From a virus (taxonomy: Duplodnaviria > Caudoviricetes): a DNA stretch of 64,000 nt. The notes under the pieces are model-generated. The model ran no database searches and had not been told where the DNA came from. It saw only the letters and a program-made list of their open reading frames with translations. The number at the start of each line of letters is the position of its first letter. The stretch's first letter is position 1. The DNA lies in IMG/VR virus record IMGVR_UViG_3300023256_000002, positions 6,807-70,806 of that record; one strand, given 5' to 3'. Positions 3,211 through 58,663 of this stretch are shown here, piece after piece. The translations under genes and the position numbers were made by a program.

Positions 3211-4413
3211 TTATGCGGGAAGATTGTTTTTAATATTATAAATATGTTTTAGATGATTTTGAAACTCAATATCTTCACACATTCCTTTCCCTAAACTGTC
3301 TGAAATTTTAGCTGTAGGTCTATGATTTTGTTCAACCATTTTCATAACTATTTGCAATGGAACAGGGCCACAATCATTCATTAGGTTGGTTCCGATTCCG
3401 AAACTAGTTTTGATTCTACCATTAAAGCGACTAAATATTCGAATGGCAAGTGGGAAATCTAATCCATCTGAAAATATAGCATTTTTTGTTTTTGGGTCAA
3501 TATCCATTAATACATAATGACTAATCAATTTTTCTCCCCACTCGAATGGATCGCCACTATCATGTCGGCATCCATCAAATAGTTTTGAGAAATGCAAATC
3601 GAAATCATTTAAGAATGCATCCATTCCAATAATATCACTTAATGCAATACCAAGCAATCCTCTGTATTCTTGAGACCACCGCTCCAAAGCTACTTTTTGA
3701 AAATCAAATAAACTAACGCCATGGGTTTGTTGATGCCCCTGAAACCATTCGTGTGCCATTGTGCCGATTGCTTTAATGTTATATTTGATTGCGAAATAAA
3801 CATTTGACGTACCAACAAAGAAATCATTTGTTCGTTGATTTTTTGAGAAAAACTTTAATGTTTTTTCTATAACTTCATCTTGCCATTTGAAAGAATATCT
3901 TCGTCTCGTTCCAAAATCAGCGAATGTAAAGCCATCAACGTATATTGCTTTGTCAAGTTTTGTATATAAATTAGCAATACCAACATCGTGTGTCATTTTT
4001 TCATCTGGCTTTAATGATAGAAAATAAAGCTCATTGACCATTGCTAATACAGGCACTTCAAACCAAATTGTATAACACCAAGGGCCTTCAACATATATTT
4101 TCAATTCACCATTAACATTCTTTACACTTATATATTTATAGTTCAATTTTAGTAAACGCAAAAATTCCATAAAATCATTTTTCAAATATGGAATTTTATC
4201 CTTCAATGCAATTAATTCTTTTTCACTAAACGATAGTTTGCATAATTTTTTTATTTCATCTTTAACTTGTTCGGCCAAATATCCTAATTTAACTCCTTTA
4301 TTACGACAGGTAAATTTATATTTAACCCAAGCATCTGGTTGCGTATGGAAAACGGCCATTGACATTGAAAATTTGTAACTATCTTGATCGAGCAATCTCT
4401 TAATAATACTCAT
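3211..4413 (-). CDS. pncB: Nicotinate phosphoribosyltransferase
   Basis: LLDQDSYKFSM, DFGTRRR, GTSNV, GTMAHEW, RHDSGDP, FSDGLD, FGIGTNL, KISD motifs. Confidence 0.95.
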   Translation of the reverse strand: MSIIKRLLDQDSYKFSMSMAVFHTQPDAWVKYKFTCRNKGVKLGYLAEQVKDEIKKLCKLSFSEKELIALKDKIPYLKNDFMEFLRLLKLNYKYISVKNVNGELKIYVEGPWCYTIWFEVPVLAMVNELYFLSLKPDEKMTHDVGIANLYTKLDKAIYVDGFTFADFGTRRRYSFKWQDEVIEKTLKFFSKNQRTNDFFVGTSNVYFAIKYNIKAIGTMAHEWFQGHQQTHGVSLFDFQKVALERWSQEYRGLLGIALSDIIGMDAFLNDFDLHFSKLFDGCRHDSGDPFEWGEKLISHYVLMDIDPKTKNAIFSDGLDFPLAIRIFSRFNGRIKTSFGIGTNLMNDCGPVPLQIVMKMVEQNHRPTAKISDSLGKGMCEDIEFQNHLKHIYNIKNNLPA

Positions 4414-4439
4414 TGTTCCTTCCTATTTATTTCGCTACA

Positions 4440-4492
4440 CATAACAGCCTATCTATGCTACGCTTCATTTGCATAGCATACTGGCAGTTATG
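4440..4492. repeat. attC-like imperfect palindrome, copy 1
   Basis: CATAAC-AGCC...TATGC-loop-GCATAG...GGCA-GTTATG; shares GCCTATCTATGCT and GCATACTGGCAGTTAT blocks with the 29.1 and 29.6 kb copies. Confidence 0.6.
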
Positions 4493-4494
4493 AG

Positions 4495-4761
4495 TCATAT
4501 ATCTATTTTCATATACAGCCAACAACCGAAAACTATAAATCCATATTCATGTATTGAGTTACTTTTTCGATGTCTGTTTATAATTTCAAATAGTGGATAT
4601 TCTTGCCAATACCAATGCAAACCGTACCAAACATGTTTGACATTAAAATCAAAACCATACTTATCCAAATAAAACTTTCTTCTTATGTTCATAATTGACT
4701 CCTTTTTTGATAGACGACTCATAACAAGCGTATCATCGCCGACACGCCGCATACACGGCAC
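4495..4761 (-). CDS. Hypothetical Trp-rich protein
   Basis: ORF track; ends at TGA, so under code 4 it extends ~14 codons into the hairpin; true start probably MNIRRK after AAGGAG. Confidence 0.4.
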   Translation of the reverse strand: MPCMRRVGDDTLVMSRLSKKESIMNIRRKFYLDKYGFDFNVKHVWYGLHWYWQEYPLFEIINRHRKSNSIHEYGFIVFGCWLYMKIDI

Positions 4762-4779
4762 ATTATTCTAATTTGATCT

Positions 4780-5259
4780 TTACCAAATTCCGCCATCATC
4801 TCTTCTCAACACCGAGTTGCCATCATATTCTATTCCCATTCTTTTACAGGTATCTGATTTAATTGTTTCGAGTGTAATCATAGTTTCACGATACCATTCC
4901 ACAGGGAATACAACTGAATCAATAGGATTTATCTTTCTTACTGCATCTATAGCAATATTGATTTTGTCCAATTCTTTTTTTAACCAATGTTCTTGCTCCC
5001 ATTTGTCGGCTTCATTTTTCATATCTGACAATTTAGCGTTAATATTGTCGAAATTTGCTGTTTTTTCAATCAAAGTTCTGTCGAAAACATCTCTCCAATA
5101 AGGACATTCTTCCTTATTATCATACTCTTTCTTTCTTGAAATTGAACAATCCCAAGGTTTACCTTCGTCTATACAACATGTCTCCAAACAATCGCCATCA
5201 ACTACACAACATTTAATTGTGATTGGAAACTTTTTTGCAAAATCTTCTTTTCTTATCAT
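4780..5259 (-). CDS. Hypothetical protein, Cys-rich N-terminus
   Basis: 159-aa ORF, AGGA before ATG, TAA stop. Confidence 0.55.
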   Translation of the reverse strand: MIRKEDFAKKFPITIKCCVVDGDCLETCCIDEGKPWDCSISRKKEYDNKEECPYWRDVFDRTLIEKTANFDNINAKLSDMKNEADKWEQEHWLKKELDKINIAIDAVRKINPIDSVVFPVEWYRETMITLETIKSDTCKRMGIEYDGNSVLRRDDGGIW

Positions 5260-5313
5260 ATCTTTTCCTTTTTTTAATCACATTACTATAATATTTATTC
5301 AAATTACTTCTTC

Positions 5314-5715
5314 TTATCTCAAATTGTTTGCAACGCTTAAGGCACTAAATTTATAACGTTTGTTTGTTCCAACTTCTTCAGCAACAATTTTAAATTTACG
5401 GGCACGTGTATTAAAGCCAATAATTCTAAAAGTTTGTGTACCAGAGAGAAATGTTCTACGAAGATCTGTAGCTTTCAATCCGTAAAATTCTGCGTTTAAT
5501 TTGAATGCAGTTGCTTCTGGAGAAAGAACCTCTCCATCTTGTATAACATTTGCCGACAATTTCATTGTATACGACGTATCAGAATAACTTCCATTTCCTC
5601 GTGTAAATTTGATATTAAATTTTTGTTCAACATCTTTTAGTGCTTTCAAAACTTCGTTGCTTATAATTCTACACATTGGCCTATTCATTTGCTGAATGTT
5701 TATTTGTTCGTTCAT
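5314..5715 (-). CDS. Hypothetical protein
   Basis: 133-aa ORF directly downstream of a sigma70-like promoter, GGGGA RBS. Confidence 0.6.
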   Translation of the reverse strand: MNEQINIQQMNRPMCRIISNEVLKALKDVEQKFNIKFTRGNGSYSDTSYTMKLSANVIQDGEVLSPEATAFKLNAEFYGLKATDLRRTFLSGTQTFRIIGFNTRARKFKIVAEEVGTNKRYKFSALSVANNLR

Positions 5716-5765
5716 ATCTTCCCCCTTTCTTTTTTTATCACTTTTTCTCTCTCACTTACATTACT

Positions 5766-5793
5766 ATAGTATTCTTTTATCAGTTTTTGTCAA
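5766..5793 (-). promoter_or_regulatory. sigma70-like promoter, repeat copy 1
   Basis: TTGACA (5793-5788)-N16-TACTAT (5771-5766), followed by AGTAATGTAAGTGAGAG as in the copies at 6.85 and 18.4 kb. Confidence 0.7.
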
Positions 5794-5834
5794 TATATTT
5801 TTTCATCTTTGCCTCTTTCCGTTATAGTCTCCTA

Positions 5835-6329
5835 TTAAATTAACTTTAATGCTTCCTGTAATCCTTTTTCAAAGGCTTCTTCGTATGTTTTGTAGATCTT
5901 GGTATCTTTTTGGCTATATCCTATTGTTTTATATAAATCTAATAATTCGTTAACAGGAAAATGAGATGTCTTTGAATTTGAAGCTACACGCAAATTTATG
6001 TCATGCTTTTCTCTTAACCATTTCTGTAAAAGTGATTGGGTGGGAGCAGAAAAGTGATTTTCAATTATATTATGTTGCAAGGGGAATAATTCTGAAAGTG
6101 TACGATATGGGTAACCATTCACATCTTTGTCATATCCATTGTGAGATATTCTTTTGTTTTCAGGTTCGGTTTCTCCATCAAATTCAGAATGCTGTTTACT
6201 CCATTTATAACACTCAATACAGAATATATTGAATCCTTTTTCTTTGGCTAATTTAGCTGTTTCAAATGATATTAATTGTTCTTTCATAAATTCGCCATAA
6301 CTCTCTGCTGTATATATTGTATTTTTCAT
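5835..6329 (-). CDS. Conserved phage hypothetical protein
   Basis: EQLISFETAKLAKEKGF and SAPTQSLLQKWLREKH motifs. Confidence 0.6.
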   Translation of the reverse strand: MKNTIYTAESYGEFMKEQLISFETAKLAKEKGFNIFCIECYKWSKQHSEFDGETEPENKRISHNGYDKDVNGYPYRTLSELFPLQHNIIENHFSAPTQSLLQKWLREKHDINLRVASNSKTSHFPVNELLDLYKTIGYSQKDTKIYKTYEEAFEKGLQEALKLI

Positions 6330-6353
6330 TTTACACTTCCTTATAATTTGGAA

Positions 6354-6506
6354 CTAATCAACTAATGAATCAAATTCTCTAATTGAGATAGTTTCAAAAT
6401 TAGAAAAGCAATAATCTTCTGCATTTGACAAATTTACAGCTTCAATAGTAATCCCAAATGGGTACCCGCCGTCGAAGTTTTTAACTAGACAAATAAATTT
6501 TTTCAT
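6354..6506 (-). CDS. Small hypothetical protein (50 aa, not in track)
   Basis: GAGGAGGG upstream; MKKFICLVKNFDGGYPFG...LVD-TAG. Confidence 0.45.
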   Translation of the reverse strand: MKKFICLVKNFDGGYPFGITIEAVNLSNAEDYCFSNFETISIREFDSLVD

Positions 6507-6524
6507 TTTACACCCTCCTCAAGG

Positions 6525-6800
6525 TTATTTACATATTACTTTAAAATCATCAAATTTAATAGGTATTTTAATATGCTTTTCTAATATTTCAATACCAATT
6601 TCAGAACCAGTTCTGCCACTATATGATTGGTAATATTTTTGGATGTAATCAGTTTTCAAGATTATCTGCCAATCACAATAGTTGGATTCAATACGCTCAA
6701 TAAATAGTTTATCACCCGAATCTATTTCAGGCGTATTAACATAAATTCTTTCCATTTTTTTAGTTCCAAAATCTTTTTCCCATAATCTCATTTTAATCAT
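6525..6800 (-). CDS. Hypothetical protein
   Basis: Start MIKMRLW after AAGGAG; the longer start in the track lies inside the repeated promoter leader. Confidence 0.5.
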   Translation of the reverse strand: MIKMRLWEKDFGTKKMERIYVNTPEIDSGDKLFIERIESNYCDWQIILKTDYIQKYYQSYSGRTGSEIGIEILEKHIKIPIKFDDFKVICK

Positions 6801-6851
6801 TTTATATCTCCCTTGTTTTTTTATCTCTTTCACTCTCTCACTTACATTACT

Positions 6852-6879
6852 ATAGTATTCTTATTGGTGGTTTTGTCAA
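6852..6879 (-). promoter_or_regulatory. sigma70-like promoter, repeat copy 2
   Basis: TTGACA-N16-TACTAT; about 70 bp identical to 18355-18425. Confidence 0.72.
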
Positions 6880-6888
6880 GTTTATTTA

Positions 6889-7011
6889 TTATATTCTATT
6901 GTAAAATTGTACGAACTTTTTTTGTTGTGCTTTGTAACTTAATTTGTCTCAAGCTTTAATACTAAAGAAAATGCCTATTACAAATACTGCCACTATAATT
7001 ATTTTTCCCAT
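6889..7011 (-). CDS. Small membrane protein (code 4, 40 aa)
   Basis: AAGGAG RBS; MGKIIIVAVFVIGIFFSIKA[TGA]DKLSYKAQQKKFVQFYNRI-TAA. Confidence 0.5.
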
Positions 7012-7058
7012 TTATTCTCCTTCAATATATTTAAGTTCTGGCTTATTTAATTCAAATG

Positions 7059-7286
7059 TTATTGCAATTTACACTCGTCTTTGTCTTCGCTACAAAGGTG
7101 TAAGTTGTCCTCAATATACCAAGCTGGTTGATAATTATCATCGTCAGGAATAACATAATATTCATAGCAACCATCAGCGAAGTTCCATCTGTGAAGTATA
7201 ATTTCCAAAGTTACATAATCATCATAAGTGTCAGGGTATACTTTGTCGCCATTCCTAAATTTTGATTTTTTAACCTTTTTACTCAT
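7059..7286 (-). CDS. Hypothetical protein
   Basis: 75-aa ORF with RBS and TAA stop. Confidence 0.5.
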   Translation of the reverse strand: MSKKVKKSKFRNGDKVYPDTYDDYVTLEIILHRWNFADGCYEYYVIPDDDNYQPAWYIEDNLHLCSEDKDECKLQ

Positions 7287-7388
7287 TTTGTTTTCCTTAT
7301 TTTAACTTTTTACGTTTATTTATTAAATATTTGAATGACACTATATTGTGTATATCTTCGAAACTGACATATTCGGAAAAAAGTGGTG

Positions 7389-8309
7389 TTATATATTTTG
7401 TTTCAAACATTTTTTCTTACCCATAAAGTAAGCATATAATCTGCTACTCAAAATATAATCATTTTCCTTTGCATCTTTTTCAAGTTTTTCTAATATTGTA
7501 TCATCAAGTTTAACCAATTCCCATTCAATTTTTTCTTCATCATCTAGCCTTTGTTTGCCATTTGTATCAGTAACTAACATTTCTACAAAATATAACATTT
7601 CGGTTGTTAGTCCGGCAGACGATGCAATTGGGGGTGATACAGATAATACTTCACCACTACAGCCCGTTTCTTCTGTAAGTTCTCGTATAGCAGTTTCGGA
7701 TGGAGTTTCACCTTCATCGATTAATCCAGCAGGAAATTCAATAACAGTTTTATCAAATGGGTATCTGTGTTGCTTGATTAAAACAATTTCATTTTTAGGT
7801 GTAATACCTATAATTACTGCCGCTTCGCTTTGGCTTTTTCTTTCAACATATTCCCAATGTCCTGTTGGCGTTTTCCTATCATAAATAGACAACCAATCGC
7901 CTTTCCATAATAATTTTTTACTCATATAATTATCTCCATATATTGTATATTTTTTGTTATTTTTAATAAATACTTCTGGAGTTGCCGGTAATGGCTCAAG
8001 GGCTTCGTCAGGAACGCCCCAAACATCATCAGCTGTAATTGATGTTATACAATCAATTGAAACAACTATTGACCAATTAGGCGAGGTGTGATAACCAAGA
8101 ACATTATTGTGGCGTTGCTTAAAGGTCCCAGCTAATAATCTGACTTGACGGCCAACCCTATATCCATAATGATTGTTAATTTTTGGCGAAGATCTTACAG
8201 CAAAAATTTCTTTTGATGCAAATCTTTTTTCATTTACTATTGCATTACCATTATCATCCATATATTGTAATTCTATATCATTAGGTTTCACTTTACGACT
8301 AAAATTCAT
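7389..8309 (-). CDS. Nudix hydrolase (ADP-ribose pyrophosphatase-like) with N-terminal extension
   Basis: Nudix box EFPAGLIDEGETPSETAIRELTEETG, KQHRYP, SSAGLT; internal GGAG plus ATG at 7925. Confidence 0.85.
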   Translation of the reverse strand: MNFSRKVKPNDIELQYMDDNGNAIVNEKRFASKEIFAVRSSPKINNHYGYRVGRQVRLLAGTFKQRHNNVLGYHTSPNWSIVVSIDCITSITADDVWGVPDEALEPLPATPEVFIKNNKKYTIYGDNYMSKKLLWKGDWLSIYDRKTPTGHWEYVERKSQSEAAVIIGITPKNEIVLIKQHRYPFDKTVIEFPAGLIDEGETPSETAIRELTEETGCSGEVLSVSPPIASSAGLTTEMLYFVEMLVTDTNGKQRLDDEEKIEWELVKLDDTILEKLEKDAKENDYILSSRLYAYFMGKKKCLKQNI

Positions 8310-8311
8310 TT

Positions 8312-9034
8312 TTATATCTCCTGAATATTTTGGAACAAAACGGTTAATTTTTTATCTGGATATGTTCTGTCTTCGTGGTAATGTCCACAAAACCACCATT
8401 TGTAATCTATAACGTGGTCATACAAAATATCATCAAGATATTTGCTTAATGGATCATAATATTTTGGATGCCTTGTTGCGTAGCAACCTAAAATGCCTTT
8501 AAGTGCTGATTGCGGTGCAACGTGCGTAATTATATAATCAACTTTCCCATCAACTTTTGCCAAACAATCCATACCTCTTTCGTGTTCATCGTGGTTTGGT
8601 TGCTCCTCTATCCACCAATCAATGCCGTATGTTCTTCGGGCTCTATCTATAGAAAGTCCGCCGCCCATAGTCCAAATTGTCTTACCATTAATTGTATAAA
8701 TTGCACCTCTTTCTAAAATGAATACTGATTCACTAACTTTCAAAACTTCACCACCAAATTTTTTAACTTTAGGTAATTGATTTATTTGATAATAGTTCTC
8801 ATGGTTGCCAAGAACAATTACGGTAGTCCACGGCTTATTTTCGTACCAATTACGAAGCATTTTGCTGTGATTCTTATCGCTTGCACTTGGTCCAAAATAC
8901 GCCCCCCAATCTCCAGCAATGACAAGAATGTCTTCCTTATTCAATGTAACTCCTGCTGGCCATAAAATTGGAAATAATTTACTGAAATCTCTGGTTGAGT
9001 GCGTATCTCCCGTAATGAATGTTCTTCCCATCAT
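8312..9034 (-). CDS. Calcineurin-like metallophosphoesterase
   Basis: ITGDTH, AGDWG, LGNHEN, ITH, GHYH motifs. Confidence 0.88.
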   Translation of the reverse strand: MMGRTFITGDTHSTRDFSKLFPILWPAGVTLNKEDILVIAGDWGAYFGPSASDKNHSKMLRNWYENKPWTTVIVLGNHENYYQINQLPKVKKFGGEVLKVSESVFILERGAIYTINGKTIWTMGGGLSIDRARRTYGIDWWIEEQPNHDEHERGMDCLAKVDGKVDYIITHVAPQSALKGILGCYATRHPKYYDPLSKYLDDILYDHVIDYKWWFCGHYHEDRTYPDKKLTVLFQNIQEI

Positions 9035-9046
9035 ACCCTCTTATTT

Positions 9047-10262
9047 TTATTTAGTTTGAAGCCTCTTAAGCTCTTTTTTGTAAAATATACAATTTACCTC
9101 TGCTCTGTCAAGTTCTTTTTTTGCTTCGTTGATTAAATATTCGGTATCTTTATTTTTTAATTTAATAATTTTTGTAATAAGTGTCAGTAATACAAGCATC
9201 ATAAAAATTGCACAAACGCCCCAAATTTTTAGGCCATTAATTCCATTATTAAACATTGGATAGATTAGCGAAAGGGCCATAGCGCCTAAAGTAATTTTAT
9301 ACCAAGTTCCAAGTTTTTCTCATAATTTTTTCTTTTGTTTCATTCTCTCTCCTATTTCTCTAATTCGTTTATATTAATTTCACCACACCAATGTTGTTTT
9401 AATAAATCAAAAACATATCGTTTCATCATGTAGTCGTTCGGTTCCATCCACTTATTCCAAAAATTTTTATCATTAAGCGTTAATAGAAATTCACAAAATC
9501 TGCTTAAACGGGTTGCAACTAAAACTGAACTGGCCGTCGCATCTATTGGCAACCACCAGGTTAAGGCTACGTATCCATTATGAGCATCAATCAACACCTT
9601 TGTTCTTTCTTCTCTTGTTAGCTTGATCATTATACCTCCTTATTATCCACTTGTATGCTTGTAATTATGGACTTAAATTCCATAAGTACGAAAAATCTAA
9701 AAACTATCCGATGATCGTAAATAAAGCTACTATAAGTATCCAAAATAATATCCACTTATTTCCTACTTTACAACGCCAAGTATTAAAAGTGCTGTGAGTA
9801 CAACACCTACAAAATTACCGTAAAGAAACCATCCAAAATAACTCTCAATTACTTTGTTCTTTTCCATATACGCTCCGATACATGCAAACAGTATTGCCGC
9901 AACCAATAATAAAAAGATTTCCATTATATACCTGCCCCACATAACCATCGAACCCATCTTGGAATTCTTTTAAGCTTTTCCTCATAAATCTCACTTAATG
10001 CCTCTTTCTGAATCATTGCCACTTTAGTTTGTTTAAGTTCTCTTTTGGTTTCCAAATGTTTTTCGGCGTGTTGATTACATTTTGTTGCTATTTTTTGAAC
10101 TGTATCGTCAATCGTGCAATAGTGTATCGTTGTTCGCACGCAAGCGGTGCCAGCAGTATATTCGCAAACCTTTACTTCATTTTCTTCAAGTGCTTTTTTG
10201 TCTTTCAGCAAATCTAAATAATCATCTACTGGGATTTCTACTTTTCCTTCTCTCATTTTCAA
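9047..10262 (-). CDS. Cluster of four small hypothetical ORFs (9047-9280, 9352-9630, 9763-9957, 9924-10262), two predicted membrane proteins
   Basis: Tandem ORFs with RBS motifs; hydrophobic stretches in the first and third. Confidence 0.45.
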
Positions 10263-10270
10263 TTCCTTAA

Positions 10271-11155
10271 TTAAATATATTCTTTTCTTTCAATGTTAAA
10301 TGGATGGTTGCGTTTGAAATCACTTGTAACATGACGTTTAATAACTGGATGATTTATAAGTTCAGGCCAAGAATTTATATCAATCATGCCGCCCAACATT
10401 CCGTTGATATACAGTTTCAATATGTTATCAACTTCTTCATATGTGGCAGCACCCAATTGTGCCAAATCGCCATTGCTTACTCCAAGCCCATCAGTAGGTT
10501 TTTTTGCAATAGAAGATTTAATCCATTTTTCTACTGATTCGCCTTTATATTTGCTTTCGCATATCCACTCTGTCAATTCATAAACTTCTGATTTCCATAA
10601 TTTTTGAATCATACCGTAATCACCTACGTCACCATGTAAAGTCCAAAATCCCAAAAGATATTCTGTTAAGTTATCAGTTGACAATACAAGACCATGTGTT
10701 GCTTGGGCCAGATTGTATAAATATATCATTCGCATTCTTGCCATCAAATTTCCTCTGCGGATTTTATATTCTAAATTTGTTTCTTCTGGCATAATATCTC
10801 TATCAACTTCTCCTATCATATCCCACAAAGCATTAAATTCATCACTTAAATCGGCGACACAAAATGAATTGCATAAATCAATACCAAGTTCAATTGCAAC
10901 GTCATTTGATTCCCAACCACTTCCGCCAGCATTTTTTGGTCTGATTGGAATGTTTACCCCAATTAAATCAATATTGGCATCATTGCAAACTGCTTTCGCA
11001 AGTAAAGCGACTAAAGTGCTATCAATTCCGCCAGATATTCCTAATACTAATGATTTAATATTATGTTTTTTAACATACTTGATTGTGGTATTTTTAATGT
11101 TTTCAAATACTTTACCATAATCTTTAATTGGCTTTAACATATTTTTTGTATACAT
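10271..11155 (-). CDS. nadE: NH3-dependent NAD+ synthetase
   Basis: LGISGGIDS, GNLMARMRM, STDNLTE..LGFWTLHGD, KPTDGL motifs; no glutaminase domain. Confidence 0.92.
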   Translation of the reverse strand: MYTKNMLKPIKDYGKVFENIKNTTIKYVKKHNIKSLVLGISGGIDSTLVALLAKAVCNDANIDLIGVNIPIRPKNAGGSGWESNDVAIELGIDLCNSFCVADLSDEFNALWDMIGEVDRDIMPEETNLEYKIRRGNLMARMRMIYLYNLAQATHGLVLSTDNLTEYLLGFWTLHGDVGDYGMIQKLWKSEVYELTEWICESKYKGESVEKWIKSSIAKKPTDGLGVSNGDLAQLGAATYEEVDNILKLYINGMLGGMIDINSWPELINHPVIKRHVTSDFKRNHPFNIERKEYI

Positions 11156-11164
11156 CTTTCCCCC

Positions 11165-11374
11165 TTATTTAATTAAAATAGTTTGTAGCGTGTCAACGAT
11201 AACTATCGTAGTATCAACCATAGTTGAGTCTTGGCCATTCCATACGTTTTCGACAATGTTTTTAATACCCCGTTCTTGGATACATTTTGCAATGTCAATA
11301 GCACCCCATATAAGCAATACAAGTATAATGATGTAGACAAGACACCCCGCTCTCATAATTCTTTCTAATTTCAT
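11165..11374 (-). CDS. Small membrane protein
   Basis: 69 aa with a hydrophobic N-terminal helix; AAGGAG RBS. Confidence 0.5.
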   Translation of the reverse strand: MKLERIMRAGCLVYIIILVLLIWGAIDIAKCIQERGIKNIVENVWNGQDSTMVDTTIVIVDTLQTILIK

Positions 11375-11410
11375 ATCTTGCTCCTTTATTTCCTTTTTAC
11401 TAATATTGTT

Positions 11411-11438
11411 ATACTAATATTGTTAATTATTTTGTCAA
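11411..11438 (-). promoter_or_regulatory. sigma70-like promoter
   Basis: TTGACA (11438-11433)-N16-TAGTAT (11416-11411). Confidence 0.5.
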
Positions 11439-11447
11439 ATTGTTTTT

Positions 11448-11999
11448 TTATATTGTGGCATATCTTATTAATATTGTACCATTTTCATTAACTTGAAAGT
11501 AGCCTCCATAAAACGCCATCTCTTTTCCCCTAATCAAATAATTTAATTCATAAATTAATTTTGCCATTTGAATACATGGGTGACCATTTGGAATTGTTCT
11601 ATGTATTTTTGTTTTTAATTTTTTCGTTTTCGCTATGAACACTTTTCCACCAACCATTCCAGTCACGCCTACAATACGAGTTTTAAAATTAATATCTTTA
11701 TGCTTAAGAATGCTATCAATAAATCATCCAAGATTTGGCTCAAAAGGAAGTACTGTTAATTCTTTCATTTCTTGCATATACTTCAATACTTTGCCTAACA
11801 TATATATATCATTTGACATGGCAAGGTATGATATCTCTTTTTCCTCTATTGTTCCGGTTACAAGTGTTTCTTCGTATTGTGCTTGTATTTGTTTAATTTT
11901 ATCTAAAACCTTTTTTTCTGTTTTATATGTTAGAAGTCACCATTCTCATTCAAGCATAGATTCTTTTGACCTATCCATTTCTGTATCTGTAACGTTCAT
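11448..11999 (-). CDS. Hypothetical protein (code 4, 183 aa, 3 TGA)
   Basis: ATG overlaps the dut TAA; frame stays open through three TGA codons into track ORF 11448-11666. Confidence 0.6.
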
Positions 12000-15995: not shown

Positions 15996-16005
15996 AATAT
16001 CCCCC

Positions 16006-16941: not shown

Positions 16942-16950
16942 AACTACTCC

Positions 16951-47750: not shown

Positions 47751-47760
47751 TTACATTTCC

Positions 47761-47937: not shown

Positions 47938-48013
47938 AAGTTATCTCCTATATATAATTGTACGCATCTATTGTATATAAATATCAAAATAATAATTTTT
48001 TTGAAAAACAAAA

Positions 48014-48033
48014 AGCCCAGTTTTCACTGGGCT
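48014..48033 (-). terminator. Intrinsic terminator
   Basis: 8-bp stem AGCCCAGT/ACTGGGCT with T-run on the - strand. Confidence 0.7.
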
Positions 48034-48038
48034 CTCTT

Positions 48039-49092: not shown

Positions 49093-49182
49093 AACTTTCT
49101 CCTATATTCATTTTGGTTTGTTTTATTGATTTACATAACCCATTTCTTATATATATTATGTTATTACTTTTTTCTTGTTTTT

Positions 49183-50381: not shown

Positions 50382-50553
50382 AGTATTAAAGTCAAAATTT
50401 AGTCAATCAGGAATATATGTCGGGTCGTCAAATGGCGAGGTTTTCTTAAACAACTTTACAACCTTATCTAAAAACTTCATCAATGTAACCCCCTATACTT
50501 TTATTTCTATCTATATGTATTTCAAACAAATTCAAAAACTCTTATTTTTATAT

Positions 50554-50577
50554 AAAAAAACTCCGCACAAGGCGGAG
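50554..50577 (-). terminator. Intrinsic terminator
   Basis: CTCCGC/GCGGAG stem followed by T7 on the - strand. Confidence 0.6.
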
Positions 50578-50603
50578 CTAATATTTTTAACAATCTTTTA
50601 TGA

Positions 50604-50780
50604 TTAAGCTTTACATAAAAACTTCGTGTATCGCTTAATCATAAGTAAGTCTATTGGAATATAATTATCATTTTTATCCCTAATCCATGCATCCACTACG
50701 TCATTTTCGGAGCAATTTCTTCTTACTGTCCATAAAATTTGTTCTTTTTTCTTCTTAAAAATTTTCTTAAATATACCCAT
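50604..50780 (-). CDS. Small hypothetical protein
   Basis: GGAGG RBS; MGIFKKIFKKKK... Confidence 0.45.
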   Translation of the reverse strand: MGIFKKIFKKKKEQILWTVRRNCSENDVVDAWIRDKNDNYIPIDLLMIKRYTKFLCKA

Positions 50781-50840
50781 CAAATAACCTCCATACAAAT
50801 ATATATGCTTAATTTAAATCGCAAACTCTTGTTTTTTTTA

Positions 50841-51635
50841 TTAGAAATTAAAACTATTGTGAAGTTCTCGGTGACATTCTCTGCATAATGCAACGCCTGA
50901 TATTTCATTGTCCGTATGATAATTTATAATTGCATCAATAAATTTAGTTCTGTCTAACTTATCATCAAAATTGTTCTTTTTTCTAATAATATTTATTATT
51001 TCTGACATTATTATTTGATTGTGATGAACATCTAATTTGCCGCCAGCACCACACTTTGAACATTTGAATTCATATTTTTTTAATATTGGAAATTTTCATT
51101 CATTATATAATTTTCTACTTCCGTGACATGCCGCATTTATTGAACTATTACCGCCACATCATGCGGGAGATTCCGCACCATATTCAACTTTAAGCACGCC
51201 ATCTTTCCACATTTTTTTCATACGTTCTGATTTTCTTTTTAATAAATCTTTATCAGCTAAAATTGTTTTTCTTGAATTTTCGGCATTTAATCTAACACGT
51301 TCGTCTGTAATGTCCAATCCTTTATTCCAAGGCTCTCTTACGCCGTCTTTATATTGTTGCCTTCTTGTTTCTGCGGAATGTTCAATTGCTTTTGGATTAT
51401 GGCCCCAATTATTTTTTACTCTTGAAATGTGTCCTCTTTTGTAATCGCAAAACCCATGCGAATTAAAGTTAGTTTCTTCTCCACATCCGCATTTGCATGT
51501 TGGTCTTATTCCATTTAGATAAAATTCTAAATGAAAATCCTCTGATTTAATTCCATGAAGCCAACCCACATGTTTCCTAAGACTATTATAGTTATCAAAT
51601 ATTCGGCTACATCTTTTACACTTAAATTTTTCCAT
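50841..51635 (-). CDS. HNH homing endonuclease with zinc-finger/NUMOD N-terminus (code 4, 264 aa)
   Basis: CKCGCGEET, PWNKG, PA[W]CGG, CSKC..LDVHH, LCRECHRELH. Confidence 0.8.
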
Positions 51636-51734
51636 AAAAAAATCCTCCATACAATTATATATATGGAGGAATATTGTTTTTAACAATCTTTTATGATTAA
51701 GCAGTAAAAAGATTTAAGAACCGCTTAATCATAT

Positions 51735-52226
51735 CTAATACTCCATTACTGGGTAGTCGTAGCGGAGAGAAATCGTGATTTCTTGTGCTGTTGCATCTCC
51801 CCAATCTAATTCGCCAAAGTTTGCACTTTTAATTCATGCTTTCTTTAATGTCCAAGCACTAATTTTATCGCCAACTGGTCCTAATTCAAGTATAGTTACA
51901 TCCTTTTGATACATTGCTCCGTATCCGTCTCTGCCTGTTTCAGCTTCGTGATGTGCTCTAATTCAATTCATTACAATTTGAGCACCTGATGGTGATATTG
52001 GGTCATATAAAGTTAAACTAATTTCGTCATAAGAAACTTTACCCATAGAATATTTTGTTATATTAATATGAGGCAATTCAACCTCATCAATAGTTATGCT
52101 TGGTCTCGCCGCACCTTTAATTAAAAATGAAGGTATTCCATCTATTTCTAATATAAATCTATTCTTTAATCTTGGCTCAAACTTATCAAATAACATTTCG
52201 TTAACGTCTAGTATATTTTCTGCCAT
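51735..52226 (-). CDS. Tail tube protein (gp19-like; code 4, 163 aa)
   Basis: FEPRLKNRF, LYDPISPSGAQ.VMN[W]IR, TGRDGY, GPVGD...W..K.A[W]I..ANFGELDW, LRYDY. Confidence 0.9.
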
Positions 52227-52418
52227 TTTGCATTCTCCTTTTTTTTGTTTTAATAATTATATACATTACTCTGTATATTAATAAATATTCAAAATGTAAA
52301 TTTTTTGGCAATAATCTTCCAATAATACTTAACAAAAAACTCTGTTTTGGGGATTTTATATAATAGTTATGTTTGAATAGGGACGTATTAATATTTTATA
52401 TGAAAAATAGGGGACAAT

Positions 52419-53030
52419 ATGAGGGAATGCAATATAGATATAAGTTTGTTAGAAAAGGTTGTATTAAATGAGGCCAACATTAAGGCATTAACAAATAAGA
52501 AATCGGACGACTACAATATATCAAAATTATTAGGGATAAAATTAACACAATCCCAAAGTATTAGATTTGGAAAAAAATTTGAGAAAATAGTTGGAGATTT
52601 AATTCTTCTTGCTAAAGATACAGAATTAGAGGAAAAAACTATTTTTGATATTTATGAACTTAATGATAAAAATAGCATCAAAACAAAGGGCAAAAAAAAT
52701 GTTGATATGATTTTTAAAAAAAATAATAAACGTTATTATTTCGAATTAAAAACAAACATGAATTTAGATAGTGAAAAAAGTAAAATAACAGATGAAAAAA
52801 TAAAACAAGTAACCAATTATTTTGAAAAAAAATATAATGAAAAAATAATATCAGGATGCTTAACTTGTTGGTATGGACCTGAGAAAAAGATAGTTAATAA
52901 ATTAAAAACTGATATATATTATATGAAAGACTTGTTTGAAATATTAGATTTCAAAATAACAAAAGAAGAGTATTATACTACTTTTAAAAAATTAGGACAA
53001 AAAATAATAAAAATGGAGAATACACAATAA
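52419..53030 (+). CDS. Putative type II restriction endonuclease (PD-(D/E)xK)
   Basis: VDMIF...FELKTN motif; directly upstream of an MTase. Confidence 0.55.
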   Translation: MRECNIDISLLEKVVLNEANIKALTNKKSDDYNISKLLGIKLTQSQSIRFGKKFEKIVGDLILLAKDTELEEKTIFDIYELNDKNSIKTKGKKNVDMIFKKNNKRYYFELKTNMNLDSEKSKITDEKIKQVTNYFEKKYNEKIISGCLTCWYGPEKKIVNKLKTDIYYMKDLFEILDFKITKEEYYTTFKKLGQKIIKMENTQ

Positions 53031-53031
53031 T

Positions 53032-53826
53032 ATGAGACCTATGATTAAGTGAACCGGAGGCAAACGCAGAGAATTAAAACATTTAATTCAAATGTTACCA
53101 GAAAATATAGAAAGATTCGTCGAGCCCTTTGTTGGGGGCGGAGCGTTATATTTCCATTTAGAACATAAAAATTCAATCATTAATGATTGAGATTACGATT
53201 TAATAAACTTTTATAAAAATGCCACCAACTCTAAATTCTTAAAAAGTATATCTGAATTGGAATTATTAAATGAAAATCACGATGCTATGTCAGAAAAATA
53301 TTATGAACTTAGAGCGTTAGATAGAGGTGGGTTACATAACCACTCCAATATGACTAGGGCGATACGCTTCTTTTATGTCAATCAATTAGCGTTTAGCGGT
53401 ATGCGAAGGTTTAATAAAAGCGGTGAGTTTAACGTTCCATTCGGACATTACAAAAGGTTATCAAATCAAATAACCAATAAGCATTTGGAATTACTCAAAA
53501 CAACCGACATTAAGAACGAACATGCTGTTAATATTATTATTAATGAAGATAATGAAGGAACGTTCATATTTCTTGACCCTCCATATACTAAAGTATTCAA
53601 AACTTACTCTCCTGGAAATGAATTTACTATGGGAGAACAGCGAAAACTATGCGATAGTCTTAAAGCATTACACAAAGCAAAGTTTATGTTGGTAATTAAT
53701 AAAGAACCAGAAATACTTAAAATGTATAACGGCTTTAACGTTGCAGAATATGATGTAAAGTATGGAGTAAACATTAGGAATAGGTTTAATACAGATAGCA
53801 CCCATGTAGTAATAACAAATTATTAA
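53032..53826 (+). CDS. Dam/D12-class adenine methyltransferase (code 4, 264 aa)
   Basis: MIK[TGA]TGGK, VEPFVGGGA, IND[TGA], FLDPPY. Confidence 0.88.
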
Positions 53827-53901
53827 TAACAAAAAAAAGAAAGAAAAAATAAAGTTTTATCTTATTTCATAATATATATTATTAATAAAAACAAAGGAGG
53901 G

Positions 53902-54243
53902 TTGCAAATGAAAAAAATAAAAAAAGTAATGTCTGTTGGTGTGGGGTATATAGATGGTGGTGGAAGTCCACTATATGACAAATTGAATCCAGAATTTCCA
54001 GAATTTGAGGAGAATATTTTAGAAATAGCGTATAAAATACTAGAAAAACTTGAATTCAAATTAGGGAAAAACATTTTAAATAACAATACATGTAATAACA
54101 TTATTGATTTAATGATTGGGGATAGTCATATGCCTGCCCACATAAGTATAGAGTTTGTTGAAGATAATATGAAATACAATATATCCTTTAATGGATATTG
54201 CAAAAACAATAATGAGTATCTTGTAGAAAAGATACAAGAATAA
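53902..54243 (+). CDS. Hypothetical protein
   Basis: 113-aa ORF with AAGGAGG RBS. Confidence 0.5.
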   Translation: MQMKKIKKVMSVGVGYIDGGGSPLYDKLNPEFPEFEENILEIAYKILEKLEFKLGKNILNNNTCNNIIDLMIGDSHMPAHISIEFVEDNMKYNISFNGYCKNNNEYLVEKIQE

Positions 54244-54553
54244 ATATATTTGACTATATAATAATTCCAAATAATGTAGATTTCGATTTTACTTCAATAA
54301 CCTTCGAAGACTTAATGGAGTTTTTGTCAAAAACGAAATCAAAAAAAATAAATATGATAAGTATTTAAAACTTTAAGTTTAGCCATATAATAACAAAAAG
54401 AGAGAATAGGAAACCGTTCTCTCTTTTCTATTTAACTTAAGTTAATATTGAAAGTGAAATTATACTTTATGCTTAAAATAAATAGTGAATTATTATTTAA
54501 TAAAAACAATTTACACCATAATTATATTCAAAGAGAACGGGAGTGTTATTACT

Positions 54554-56305
54554 ATGAACAAAACAAAAATAGTTAAATGTAAAAACTGTGAAAATGAATT
54601 CAAAACATATATAAATAGACCAAAACAATTTTGTAGTAAAATTTGCTATGATGATTATAGACATAAAGAAATTAAATGTAAAAGTTGTAATAAAATATTT
54701 ATCGTTGGTAAAAAATCAAAAAGAATATATTGCTCCAACCAATGTGCGGCTGACGACTTAAAAGAATTAAGGGCTATGAAAATTAAAGAAACCTTTAATA
54801 AAAAATATGGTGTAAATTCACCAGCACAATTACAATCTGTAAAAGATAAAATTATAGAACATAGAAATAATGGCGCCTATGATAATATGATTGAAAAGGG
54901 AAAAGAAACGAGATTATTAAAATATGGTGATAAAAATTACAACAATCTTGATAAAAATAAAACAACAAAATTAGAAAGATATGGTGATGAAAATTATAAC
55001 AATAGAAAAAAATGGTTAGATACATTAAAATCCAGATATGGAAAAGGCATACACCCAAATACTGAAGCGAAACTTATGAAATCATTGGAGGAAAACAAAA
55101 TTGGATTTAAATCAGATAAATTTAAAGAATATCTTAAAGACAACAATGTATTAAACGTTTCTCAAATCTTATCAGTAAAAGAAGCAATATTAAAAAAAAG
55201 ACGAATTGCTGATTTCAATAATTTGTATAAAAAGCCAAATAAATTTTTAAGAACAATACCTTTATTCAATGTTAATGATTATATTTCGCAAGATAAAAAT
55301 GAATTATATAAATTTCAATGCTTAAAATGTAAAAAAATATTTGAAGACCACATACATCAAAATCATATACCTTCATGCCCAGATTGTTATAATATTAAAT
55401 ATGGAACTTCAATGGTTGAAGATGAAATCGCATCCTTTATTAAAGAAATTTTGCCCAATTATAAAATTTTAACAAATGTTAGAGATATTTTAGATGGTAA
55501 GGAGCTTGACATTTATATCCCAAATAAGAATATTGCAATAGAAATTAATGGATTATATTGGCATTCAGAATTATCTGGCAAAAAGAGTAAAACTTATCAT
55601 TTAGAAAAAACAAATATATGCCATAATTTAGGAATTGATTTGATACACATATTCGATGTGGAATGGGCCTTAAAAAAAGAAATAGTAATGAGCAGATTAA
55701 AAGCAATTCTTGGCGTCAATATAAATATAGATAGAGTATACGCAAGAAATTGTGAAATAAAAGAAATATCACCAACAGAAAAAAATAAATTTTTAATTAA
55801 TTTTCATTTACAGGGTGAAGATAAATCAAAATATAAACTTGGATTATTTCATAAAAATAAATTGGTTTCGGTTATGACTTTCGGTAGACCTAGAATTGCG
55901 TTAGGAAATAAAAAAGATAAAAGTAATTCTTATGAATTAAGTAGATTTGTTTCTGATAGTAATGTTGCAGTCGTTGGTGGGGCGTCAAAACTTTTATCAT
56001 ATTTTATCAAAAATTACAATCCAACAAAAATCATTTCGTATGCTGACAGACGATGGAGTAAAGGCAACTTGTATGAAAAGTTAGGGTTCAAAAAAGTATC
56101 GGATGGGACGCCCAATTATTGGTATACCGCACCAAAAAGATATGGCGCGCCATTAAAACATAGATTTAATTTTAGAAAAAATGTATTAAAGAGTAAATTA
56201 AGCGTATTTGACGAAAATCTAACTGAATGGCAAAACATGCAATTAAATGGATACGATAGGGTTTGGGATTGTGGAAGTCTAAAGTATGAAATGATATTAA
56301 AATAA
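54554..56305 (+). CDS. Hef/Vsr-like homing endonuclease-related protein
   Basis: Zinc fingers, ELDIYIP..IAIEINGLYWHS, YARNC, ELSRF, GGASKLL, SYADRRW, VWDCG. Confidence 0.75.
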   Translation: MNKTKIVKCKNCENEFKTYINRPKQFCSKICYDDYRHKEIKCKSCNKIFIVGKKSKRIYCSNQCAADDLKELRAMKIKETFNKKYGVNSPAQLQSVKDKIIEHRNNGAYDNMIEKGKETRLLKYGDKNYNNLDKNKTTKLERYGDENYNNRKKWLDTLKSRYGKGIHPNTEAKLMKSLEENKIGFKSDKFKEYLKDNNVLNVSQILSVKEAILKKRRIADFNNLYKKPNKFLRTIPLFNVNDYISQDKNELYKFQCLKCKKIFEDHIHQNHIPSCPDCYNIKYGTSMVEDEIASFIKEILPNYKILTNVRDILDGKELDIYIPNKNIAIEINGLYWHSELSGKKSKTYHLEKTNICHNLGIDLIHIFDVEWALKKEIVMSRLKAILGVNINIDRVYARNCEIKEISPTEKNKFLINFHLQGEDKSKYKLGLFHKNKLVSVMTFGRPRIALGNKKDKSNSYELSRFVSDSNVAVVGGASKLLSYFIKNYNPTKIISYADRRWSKGNLYEKLGFKKVSDGTPNYWYTAPKRYGAPLKHRFNFRKNVLKSKLSVFDENLTEWQNMQLNGYDRVWDCGSLKYEMILK

Positions 56306-56331
56306 AAAACCCGAGCCTCGTAAGGCTCGGG
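56304..56331 (-). terminator. Terminator between convergent sheath and Hef-like genes
   Basis: 9-bp stem CCCGAGCCT/AGGCTCGGG with T6 on the - strand. Confidence 0.75.
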
Positions 56332-56386
56332 GTCCTATGGAGTTAAATCCATAAGTATTGTTTATATTTAACCTATGTAAATATTG

Positions 56387-58663
56387 TTATGCACCAAAAG
56401 TTGCCCCAGTGCGAGTAATATTAAAGTCAATTATAATGAATTCGGCAACCCTTGAAGGTTGAATCCATATTTCACCTCTCATAATATTTCTATCAATATC
56501 ATCAGGTGTATTATTTGTATCATCCATTACAACCTTAAATGCATAGAGACCATTTTTAGATTGAATACTTTCCATGTATGGAGTAATCATATTAACCCAT
56601 TTTTGTCTTTCTGAATTTGTATTGTTTTGGAAGTTTAATTGCTTACTTACGTAATTAACATATTCTTTCATTTTAATTAAAAGTCTTCTAACGTTAATTC
56701 TATCAGTTGCACTCGCAAGTGCTTGTAATGTTTTTTGACCTCAAACAACTGTACCAATATTAGGGAATGATGCAATTGGGTTAATTCTTGCTGTATATAA
56801 ATCATCTCTCTCTAAATGTGTAAGTCTTGTTTTCGCTTCAATAACCGAAGTAAGTCCGCCTCTGTTAAGTCCAGCAGGAGCATACCATTCGTATCCAATC
56901 TTGTCATTAAATGCAATAACGCCTGGAATAACCACTGAAGGTGGAACTCAAACGTATCTATTTGTATTTGTATCTACAATTTTTACCCAAGGATAATATG
57001 TTGCCGCATAACTACTGTCAAGTGTTGTTGTTTGCGAAACTGCGTCTGCTACGCCCTGAGTGCTACTGCCGCAATCTATTATAAAGAATGTATCGCCTCT
57101 ATCTTCGCAAATGTTTTTCGCATAATGATAAAGGGTGCTTTGGTCAACTAAGTTAACACCAGGTGCGGCCAATAAATTCATTACGATTTCATCTTTATTT
57201 GATACAGTGTCAAATGCTTTTTTATAAGACATACTTCCCGAAGATGTATGGTCGCTTGTATCAAATCCCATTAATGTTGATGGACTGCCAGATGTGGTAA
57301 GTCTATTTGATGGGTTTTTCCCGTCGAATCCGCCTTGCATTGGAATTGTAAATTGTTTGTAAGATGAATCTGAGGCTAGGGAAACTGGGTCTTCATTTGA
57401 GCCTGAAATTGTATCTTCCAAATGGAAGGGATTATTTCCCCCCACTCAATCATTTGGGATTGCTTTTAAGAATTGTTTGTTATCATCTTCATAATCTGAA
57501 TGAAGATCAACGCCTTTATATATTTTTGCATTTACTGCGTCATTTTCTATTGATGACGTAATATAATGCATTGCTGGTGGGTTTGCTGAAGCTGTAAAAG
57601 GTACGTAAGGTGCGGCAAATCCGAAAGGTACAAGACCCTTTGAAACTCCGCCTCTATCAACTGCCTCTACCATTTTTACACGAATATAAGCACTTTTTGG
57701 CTCATAATCTCCAACCATTCTTAATTTTGTCTCGCCATTTGCATCTGCGGCAAATGTTCCGTATCTATTGCCAATTTTCTTAGCAACATAATTTGTTGCA
57801 AGTGGGTCAATAGAACATTCTGTGAAAGTTTCTAATACTTTCGGTGAGTTATCTGTATCGCTAAGTTTTCTAACTACTACGCCAAATGTTCCGTACTCGG
57901 AAACTCCTGCTACGGCTTGCTTAACATCAAAAATACCTATCTTAATTTCTCCATTTGTGTAATCTCCGTCTGATAATGAATGAAATTGGAATAAATTTTG
58001 TGACGTGTCGTCTACCTTTTGTGAAATGATGTATGGGGTTGTTGCTTCTGAATAACCTTGCTCGTCAAAGTTAAGGCCGTTTGTATTTACCGAAGCCGTT
58101 ATGTCTGTTCCTGTTATTGTTTCAATTGCTTTATCAAATATTGATTGTACATACACCATTTTATCACCTCATGGGCTTGTGCCAAATAAGTTTACAATGT
58201 AATTGGAGTCTGCCGAACTAAGTGATGCTGTATATCCAATTTCTCCATATACTGATGCTGACAATGTAAATTCTAAAGCGCCACTGCTCGATACATCCCC
58301 AAGAGTTATTCCCAATGTGCCATCAGTAGCACTTGTTGGCGCTAAAATACAATATGAAGTGTCCACTTCACTAAACTCGATAGTGTCTGCTTGATAGCCT
58401 TCCTCTCAAAGAACCCTAACAACTTGCACACTTCCTGCATTTTTTAAATATTCTTGAACTGCATATGGTGTATAAAATTTATCATAGGTATTTCCGAATT
58501 TTTGAATGGCTTCGTTTCTACTTGTCAATACGGTTGGATAAAATGCTGGTCCTTTTAAGAAAGGCCCAATTATTACCCCCCCCGCTTCATTGAGTGCTGG
58601 TGGTAAATACGACAAATCATTTTCGTTTATAAATACACCAGGACTTACTATTCTTTCTGACAT
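56387..58663 (-). CDS. Contractile tail sheath protein (code 4, 758 aa)
   Basis: MSERIVSPGV, YPWV, YV[W]VPPS, WYAPAGLNRG, INPIA, VV[W]GQKTL, RINVRRL, IQP; 5 TGA join six fragments. Confidence 0.93.

Follow-up and report, generated by a model that had tools for sequence, protein, structure and literature searches.

A signature of selection against TGA in a subset of genes of a T4-like phage contig whose sequence reads TGA as tryptophan

Introduction

Why should one group of phage genes contain no in-frame TGA codon when another group on the same DNA uses TGA freely in place of the tryptophan (Trp) codon TGG? This question is raised by the IMG/VR virus record IMGVR_UViG_3300023256_000002, a single contig of 70,806 bp, of which bases 6807-70806 (64,000 nucleotides) form the window analysed here; whole-contig counts given below also include the 6.8 kb before the window. 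A first-pass annotation had described TGA use as bimodal, with TGA-free accessory genes and TGA-rich core genes, and had offered two explanations. One was that genes under sigma70-like promoters stay readable by a host with the standard code (code 11) whereas replication and virion genes wait for a suppressor tRNA, and the other was that the TGA-free genes are recent acquisitions whose codon usage has not yet been ameliorated. Here, we report that the Trp codons of particular genes carry a signature of purifying selection against TGA, that a conserved promoter family precedes TGA-poor genes, and that a tRNA predicted to read UGA is split by a group I intron.

Results

TGA is read as tryptophan

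Codon 243 of NrdJ is a TGA at the invariant Trp of the 'NAW..GDPG' segment of ribonucleotide reductases, and codon 7 of the Dam methylase in the plus-strand island at 52419-56305 is a TGA at the Trp of the 'KWxGGK' motif. In alignments with the standard-code IMG/VR relatives G001 and G002, which share only virion genes with the contig, Trp was found at 11 of 23 TGA sites compared with 13 of 27 TGG sites, and Gly and Ser were found at one TGA site each. Moreover, Trp codons are about equally dense in TGA-free and TGA-using genes (15.6 versus 16.1 per 1000). Because TGA sits at conserved Trp positions and Trp density is equal, the ratio TGA:TGG, given throughout as in-frame codon counts under genetic code 4, is a valid measure of synonymous codon choice. 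Judged from these aligned sequences, TGA is shown to encode Trp. A reading of TGA as Gly or Ser, which was raised by the class II-like shape and G73 of the tRNA described below, was ruled out by the alignment (W at 11/23).

In one relative, L103, the pncB gene ends with ...NAI-TGA-TGG-GCG-TAA (3770-3787); this TGA may be a true stop of an early gene, and read-through after a code switch would then extend the product by three codons. A few small open reading frames (ORFs) of the contig also have TGA near their 3' ends, which bears on TGA as a stop in early genes.

TGA use is strongly uneven among genes

Recounting reproduced all nine genes reported to lack TGA, namely pncB (3211-4413, 0:7), nadE (10271-11155, 0:7), the metallophosphoesterase (8312-9034, 0:9), Nudix (7389-8309, 0:6), three methyltransferases (MTases; 13416-14681, 0:8; 29848-31158, 0:8; 60036-60929, 0:5), the gp32-like single-stranded DNA-binding protein (SSB; 33591-34406, 0:5) and the plus-strand gene 54485-56305 (0:7), which together amount to 0:62. 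The counts reported for TGA-rich genes were likewise recovered, with nrdJ at 7:1, the 1093-aa gene 44469-47750 at 11:3, the GIY-YIG endonuclease gene 61559-62386 at 7:0, the sheath gene at 5:4 and the tube gene at 2:2, and the accessory ORF 11448-11999 does carry TGA (3:1). Two gene names from the same annotation did not hold up as well. The 'Hef-like' label of 54485-56305 is unsupported, its product matching homing/HNH-endonuclease families of PHROGs and, weakly, a Mom-like domain, and the 'tape measure' label of 44469-47750 is unconfirmed because this gene matched no family; the other large virion proteins, encoded at 36042-37946, 39920-42088 and 42378-44456, also matched none in Pfam, PHROGs or NCBIfam.

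The whole 70.8-kb contig contains 93 TGA and 209 TGG codons in 86 genes, and their distribution departs strongly from a binomial null (chi-square 169, 74 degrees of freedom, p 2e-9), a value that not one of 20,000 shuffles of the codon labels attained. The result was the same for a second gene set, built strand-aware with coding-strand priority (108 genes, 104:232) (chi-square 197, 89 degrees of freedom, p 4e-10). A two-class binomial mixture, with a TGA fraction of 0.05 in 62% of genes and 0.64 in 38%, beat a single class by 61 units of the Bayesian information criterion. The claimed bimodality is therefore retained as strong overdispersion with a large near-zero class, but not in its strict form, since a J-shaped beta-binomial fits equally well. 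Genes carrying in-frame TGA number 33 of 86 and 39 of 108 in the two sets (36-38%).

Split by region, the accessory block below 21.5 kb, counted together with the 6.8 kb that precede the window, stands at 13:118 (19:135 in the second gene set), the nucleotide-metabolism and replication block at 17:33 and the virion block at 54:50 (58:50 in the second set), indicating that structural genes are recoded. Virion genes with many TGA codons include 39920-42088 (12:4) in addition to 44469-47750 and the sheath gene. Within the replication block, counts range from 7:1 in the intein-containing nrdJ and 3:1 in a Tad6-like gene through 2:5 (DHH-like), 2:2 (DnaB), 1:1 (5'-3' exonuclease) and 1:4 (RecA) to 0:5 (gp32) and 0:8 (MTase). 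The TGA codons of NrdJ, the Tad6-like protein and DnaB imply that the suppressor acts before or during replication, or that these proteins are made late. Within genes, TGA did not lie significantly closer to the 5' end than TGG did (0.48 versus 0.55 as mean relative position, p 0.105); as part of this null result, the first Trp codon was TGA in 18 of 27 genes against 13.3 expected.

Selection, rather than gene age or composition, probably accounts for the TGA-free genes

Genes that contain TGG but lack TGA number 42 and together have 131 TGG codons. In TGA-free genes 85, 83, 86 and 86% of Lys, Glu, Gln and AGR-Arg codons, respectively, end in A, equal to the values in TGA-using genes, and the guanine-plus-cytosine content (GC) at third codon positions (GC3) is 0.231 compared with 0.224. 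The TGA fraction per gene showed no correlation with GC3, GC, purine-ending bias or length.

We examined gene age through pncB, whose product is at most 54% identical to that of any GTDB species representative and at most 56% identical to cellular proteins in a large protein collection. Its nearest cellular homologues, at ~54% identity, lie in metagenome-assembled genomes of Gamma- and Betaproteobacteria and are uninformative on the host. A distinct clade of pncB relatives stands at 70-79% identity, matching the 70-82% of the core gene gp32; it is a phage clade as deep as that of gp32. The contigs bearing these pncB and gp32 relatives are TGA-recoded too, with the same gene-by-gene pattern. 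For example, in L093 (IMG metagenome 3300031227, Ace Lake, Antarctica) the orthologue of a 722-aa virion gene is 17:0 and another virion gene 5:0, and gp32, RecA and DnaB are 0:6, 0:6 and 2:2. In three relative lineages pncB is 0:7, 0:10 and 0:9 (plus one terminal TGA).

Conserved Lys, Glu and Gln positions use different codons here and in the recoded relatives at ~25-40% of sites in most genes; the equilibrium expectation is 25.5%, so silent sites are about saturated. Conserved Trp sites nevertheless remain TGG in both members of the pair at 20 of 20 positions in pncB and 14 of 15 in gp32, whereas four virion genes show 13 TGA/TGA, 11 mixed and 2 TGG/TGG sites. Because the Trp sites of pncB and gp32 stay TGG where silent sites are saturated while those of virion genes flip, these comparisons bear the mark of purifying selection that keeps TGA out of certain genes throughout the lineage, as is apparent for pncB and gp32. 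The proposal that the TGA-free genes are recent, un-ameliorated imports is rejected by the equal GC3 and purine-ending bias, the low identity of pncB to cellular homologues and the depth of its phage clade. Nor is the TGA fraction explained by GC or gene age, as it correlates with neither GC nor GC3 and pncB is all-TGG in diverged relatives.

Endonuclease genes of the relatives also contain TGA. RecA is split by the ORF of a 360-aa DUF559-type endonuclease (9:1) in L097 (2044-3126) and L098 (1798-2880), and GIY-YIG genes beside pncB are 2:1 and 4:1. RecA of L093 may hold an insertion too, being 504 aa long compared with 368 aa here.

A conserved promoter family precedes TGA-poor genes

Intergenic k-mers revealed a repeated element, TTGACAAA-N-TA(C/T)TATAGTAATGTAAGTGAGAGAG, which reads as a predicted promoter with a consensus -35 box, a 16-nt spacer, a TAYTAT -10 box and a conserved leader. 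Copies lie at 61546, 21507, 18418, 11438, 6879 and 5793, with a weaker one at 20958 and a further three in the 6.8 kb that precede the window. The strict pattern TTGRCA-N16-TAYTAT has 3 matches compared with 0.15 expected by chance. Only this conserved family is informative, as a generic sigma70 scan returned 28 matches against 33.6 in shuffled sequence. The two genes behind the copy at 61546, for an endonuclease and a Dam methylase, form a TGA-free island within the TGA-rich region.

In a post hoc classification by the nearest upstream signal, genes behind TTGACA-16-TAYTAT total 10:111 and those behind a ATATTTAT motif total 72:88 (Fisher p 3.6e-12). Several of the 10 TGA codons in the former class are doubtful, being codon 2 of a mis-started ORF or codons near the 3' ends of small ORFs. 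Operons preceded by the ATATTTAT motif include those for sheath, tube, baseplate and other virion proteins. In relatives, accessory loci again carry the TTGACA-16-TAYTAT promoter type, in L103 immediately in front of pncB, and hardly any copies occur in the 19.6-kb locus that holds their virion and replication genes.

The copies at 18388-18418 and 6849-6879 are identical over at least 46 nt of promoter plus leader (TTGACAAAACCACCAATAAGAATACTATAGTAATGTAAGTGAGAGAG), and this leader holds ATG-TAA, a minimal ORF.

A candidate suppressor tRNA is split by a group I intron

Standard ARAGORN and an Rfam scan at the gathering threshold detected no tRNA or intron on the contig. Intron-aware ARAGORN predicted a spliced tRNA of 91 nt with anticodon UCA and an interruption after position 35, and a permissive Rfam scan placed the group I intron family RF00028 at 62561-62764 with 67.5 bits (gathering score 50) and found the T-arm too. 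The tRNA consists of exon 1 (62789-62755), a 222-nt group I intron (62754-62533) and exon 2 (62532-62477). By sequence, the intron splits anticodon positions 34 and 35, the site at which the cyanobacterial tRNA-Leu(UAA) is interrupted as well. After splicing, the tRNA would have a long variable arm (19-nt variable region), G73 and an encoded CCA. A search of G001 and G002 did not find the group I intron, and a full-text search of a literature collection found no paper in which such an intron interrupts a suppressor tRNA of a phage.

Organization of the contig

The contig is AT-rich (31% GC) and has no terminal repeat. Almost every gene is encoded on the minus strand, and transcription therefore proceeds from high to low coordinates; only the low-GC plus-strand island (Table 1) departs from this. 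Protein-family searches point to a contractile-tailed, T4-like phage. The virion families matched are sheath, gp19-type tube and T4-type baseplate proteins, and those of replication and nucleotide metabolism are gp32-like SSB, RecA/UvsX, DnaB, 5'-3' exonuclease and NrdJ with an intein. Accessory families comprise at least three DNA methylases, two GIY-YIG endonucleases, PncB, NadE, a PncA-like isochorismatase, Nudix, metallophosphoesterase, dUTPase, a CCA-adding enzyme and an AAA ATPase. These searches recognised no capsid, portal or terminase gene on the contig and no lysis gene on what is a partial genome. Judging from a distant relative whose 139.6 kb have an estimated completeness of only 60%, and from the lack of recognised capsid, portal and terminase genes, the contig probably covers between a third and a half of the genome of a large T4-like myovirus, with a full length of probably 140-230 kb.

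Table 1 Features of the window and the evidence or content recorded for each
Feature	Position	Strand	Evidence or content
Second GIY-YIG endonuclease, 3' end	1..109	-	277 aa, 724 bases beyond window start; TGA:TGG 3:0; PF22945, E 4.7e-8
Accessory block, nearly TGA-free	432..21455	-	AAA ATPase, PncB, Nudix, metallophosphoesterase, NadE, dUTPase, DNA MTase; also PncA-like protein, CCA-adding enzyme, 817-aa restriction-modification (R-M)-like gene, many small ORFs
Promoter upstream of unit ending with pncB	5763..5793	-	Family pattern
Promoter, identical copy of 18388-18418	6849..6879	-	Family pattern
Promoter-like site TTGACAAAATAATTAACAATATTAGTATAAC upstream of nadE unit	11405..11438	-	Family pattern
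Sigma70-like promoter (TTGACAAAACC..TACTATAGTAATGTAAGTGAGAGAG) upstream of CCA-adding enzyme operon	18388..18418	-	Family pattern
Promoter-like site TTGACAAG..TATGAT at the limit of TGA use	21475..21507	-	Family pattern
Nucleotide-metabolism and replication block, intermediate TGA use	21779..34406	-	Per-gene counts and families
Virion block (tail, baseplate, sheath, tube), high TGA use	34557..59000	-	Regional counts and families
Low-GC opposite-strand island between tube and sheath genes	52419..56305	+	203-aa unknown protein 0:1, Dam MTase 2:0, 606-aa HNH/Mom-like protein 0:7
TGA-free island inside TGA-using region	60036..61489	-	Endonuclease 0:1 and Dam-type MTase 0:5
Promoter TTGACA-16-TATAGT, 11/12 consensus bases, before TGA-free island	61519..61546	-	Family pattern
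GIY-YIG homing-type endonuclease, Trp solely as TGA (7:0), just downstream of tRNA	61559..62386	-	Counts and family
tRNA, anticodon UCA (reads UGA)	62477..62789	-	Intron-aware ARAGORN; Rfam RF00028; sequence

The accessory block extends ~6.8 kb past the window start, and the second GIY-YIG gene, which uses TGA only, sits within it. The block contains a nicotinamide adenine dinucleotide (NAD+) salvage set on the minus strand, PncA-like (16006-16941), PncB and NadE, all free of TGA, alongside the TGA-free Nudix, metallophosphoesterase and CCA-adding enzyme (16951-18372) genes and a weak Lar-like match at 12998-13444, also TGA-free. The set and its companions (3211-18372) look like counter-defence functions. 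In contrast to the NAD-salvage genes, the gene for the Tad6-like protein (24480-25025, minus strand; 181 aa), which matches the Thoeris-inhibitor family PF25188 at 28.1 bits against a cutoff of 27, uses TGA (3:1 here and 4:0 in L093). The 817-aa R-M-like gene (18445-20898, minus strand) is 1:16, and its lone TGA, codon 319, lies in methylase motif I ('VWDCAWGTG'). Homologous motifs usually have Cys there (consensus DPACGSG), and this TGA may derive from TGY and may be a defect or a switch.

NrdJ (21779-24466, minus strand) carries its intein at residues ~279-412, matching the NrdJ-1 intein in PDB 8ubs and the Pfam family Intein_splicing. Two small paralogous-looking genes on the minus strand (29125-29460 and 29614-29820) have near-identical upstream sequence, ATTG[C/G]AGTTTTAAGGGGGAAAG. 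The plus-strand island has a GC content of 22-32% and looks like an inserted R-M or mobile cassette. Between the Dam island and the sheath operon, ~1 kb (59001-60035) has no convincing gene on the coding strand; its ORFs are short on the minus strand and full of TGA on the plus strand.

Discussion

A switch of genetic code during infection, in which TGA means Trp and selection keeps it out of early genes, is the best-supported explanation of these data and in our view a fairly probable one. The phage has reassigned TGA to Trp and most likely infects a standard-code host. Natural selection, rather than gene age or base composition, would exclude TGA from one gene set, made up of gp32 and of accessory genes (for NAD salvage, methylation, tRNA repair and other functions) that are read from the conserved family of host-sigma70-type promoters, and the likely reason is that these genes need to be translated while release factor 2 (RF2) of the host still terminates at UGA. 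Virion genes and homing endonucleases may have drifted to TGA or been selected for it, and their full-length products would need the phage tRNA(UCA), which would first be transcribed and then spliced itself out of the group I intron; the replication genes, with 0-2 TGA codons, would be in between. The order of events in infection and the genetic code of the host are what we infer here. Indirect pointers to a standard-code host are the phage's own tRNA, the strict avoidance of TGA in 42 genes, the sigma70-consensus promoters and the standard-code relatives. By sheath protein (42-45% identity), the closest isolates are phages of Microcystis and Flavobacterium, and the lineage is probably aquatic.

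The initial proposal of host-readable early genes and suppressor-dependent later ones thus stands in part. In its favour are the promoter family before TGA-poor genes here and in relatives, the intron-split tRNA(UCA) and the conserved avoidance of TGA in pncB and gp32; the tRNA, however, lacks such a promoter, and replication genes, nrdJ and the Tad6-like gene carry TGA as well. Several observations weigh against a code switch. Its timing is read from promoter type alone, the promoter classes were set after the data had been seen, genes are clustered by position, and the ATATTTAT motif is merely 2.6-fold enriched in intergenic DNA. A continuous distribution of TGA use describes the genes as well as two classes do, and DnaB, nrdJ (7 TGA) and the Tad6-like gene contain TGA though they are possibly expected early. 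The tRNA(UCA) has no promoter of the conserved family and TGA-using genes for neighbours, its class II-like shape with a long variable arm and G73 is unusual for a Trp acceptor, and no release factor, including RF1, and no tryptophanyl-tRNA synthetase (TrpRS) was found on the partial contig.

Selection for yield is the main rival to timing, and we consider it a distinctly less likely account that still deserves attention. UGA suppression would then be incomplete throughout infection, and TGA would be purged wherever truncation is harmful or yield critical, with no temporal switch. This also predicts the conserved, gene-specific avoidance of TGA and a continuous rather than two-class distribution, and agrees with the absence of an early-type promoter before tRNA(UCA). 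However, the most abundant proteins use TGA freely (sheath 5:4 and tube 2:2 here, virion genes at 17:0 and 5:0 in L093), and the coincidence of TGA-free genes with one promoter family is left unexplained. That the TGA-free genes are recent acquisitions from standard-code donors, with codon usage that has not yet drifted, now appears very improbable. Many of them are indeed accessory genes with cellular homologues (pncB, nadE, MTases), and overall codon usage differs slightly between the classes (p ~0.01), but GC, GC3 and purine-ending bias are indistinguishable, pncB is closer to its phage-lineage relatives (70-79%, matching the 70-82% of gp32) than to cellular proteins (at most 54-56%) and has kept TGG throughout in three diverged relatives, TGA is missing from gp32 although this is a core gene, and the GIY-YIG genes, which are mobile, are TGA-only.

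Equally hard to sustain is a host that itself uses code 4 (or 25), which would make the pattern incidental. The AT-rich genome (31% GC) would fit such a host, yet the phage carries its own tRNA(UCA), TGA occurs in merely 36-38% of genes, 42 genes hold 131 TGG and no TGA despite an A-ending bias of 85%, aligned TGA corresponds to Trp with Gly at 1 of 23 sites only, and relatives and nearest isolates use or infect standard-code systems. An assembly chimera, or a one-time mosaic of a standard-code and a recoded phage, is the least credible of these accounts. It would explain why TGA use is roughly positional; against it, composition is uniform, a TGA-free island with a conserved promoter lies in the TGA-rich part and a TGA-only GIY-YIG gene in the TGA-free part, the same partition recurs on independent contigs from other samples, and virion Trp codons are still flipping.

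Both the pattern and the way we read it agree with the model of Borges et al. (bioRxiv 10.1101/2021.08.26.457843), in which they have already been published for other phages. In that study, recoded phages of standard-code hosts carry the recoded stop codon in 26-71% of genes, phages of recoded hosts have it in ~90%, structural and lysis genes are recoded and replication genes variably so, and suppressor tRNAs are phage-encoded; a group I intron endonuclease of the Agate clade is strongly TGA-biased, which was read as delaying endonuclease production. The 36-38% of genes with TGA found here falls inside this range. Like the TGA-to-Trp clades Agate and Jade, our phage reads TGA as Trp in a minority of genes, encodes its own suppressor tRNA, has low GC, recodes virion genes and variably replication genes, and has a homing endonuclease among its most TGA-biased genes. 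Those phages come from human and animal guts, whereas the nearest isolates of ours are aquatic and recoded relatives come from an Ace Lake (Antarctica) metagenome. Also unlike those clades, the TGA-free set here consists mostly of accessory NAD-salvage, methylase and tRNA-repair genes tied to one specific conserved family of promoters, a group I intron interrupts the suppressor tRNA, and lysis genes, RF1 and TrpRS were not found on the partial contig. Phages of code-25 and code-4 hosts share the in-frame TGA codons but have them in ~90% of genes, unlike the 36-38% here, where TGA also means Trp rather than Gly and the phage has its own tRNA.

Crass-like phages are described as having TGA or TAG recoding in gene blocks together with a phage suppressor tRNA (Yutin et al. 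2021, PMC7886860). They resemble our phage in confining reassignment to gene blocks and in encoding the suppressor, but they are podovirus-like Crassvirales and the phage here is contractile-tailed and T4-like (sheath, tube, gp32). Theta ribozymes, which are like that of hepatitis delta virus (HDV), adjoin suppressor tRNAs of recoded gut phages, as described in PMC10879173. Here too a self-processing RNA is coupled to a suppressor tRNA, and its maturation could gate the code switch; in place of a flanking HDV-like ribozyme, it is a group I intron within the anticodon loop.

A more speculative idea, which we regard as rather unlikely, is that the TGA count per gene acts as a graded translational timer clocked by the ribozyme-gated accumulation of tRNA(UCA). 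Full-length yield might then scale as (suppression efficiency)^(TGA count), and genes might come into play in the order of 0 TGA (counter-defence and accessory genes with host-type promoters), 1-2 (replication), 5-12 (virion) and finally the TGA-only homing endonucleases. If this were true, an RNA-splicing step would be the clock of a genetic-code switch, in an aquatic lineage outside the studied gut systems.

In practical terms, standard gene callers split the genes of this contig and tRNA finders miss its tRNA, leading to mis-annotation of its genome. The division of a genome into host-readable and suppressor-dependent genes is the core evidence that phages switch genetic code during infection. 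To this evidence the contig adds a clean test in which the TGA-free state is held by selection, not by gene age or base composition, a direct link of TGA-free genes to one conserved host-type promoter family, and a non-gut example whose suppressor tRNA, as predicted from its exon and intron structure, would need self-splicing.

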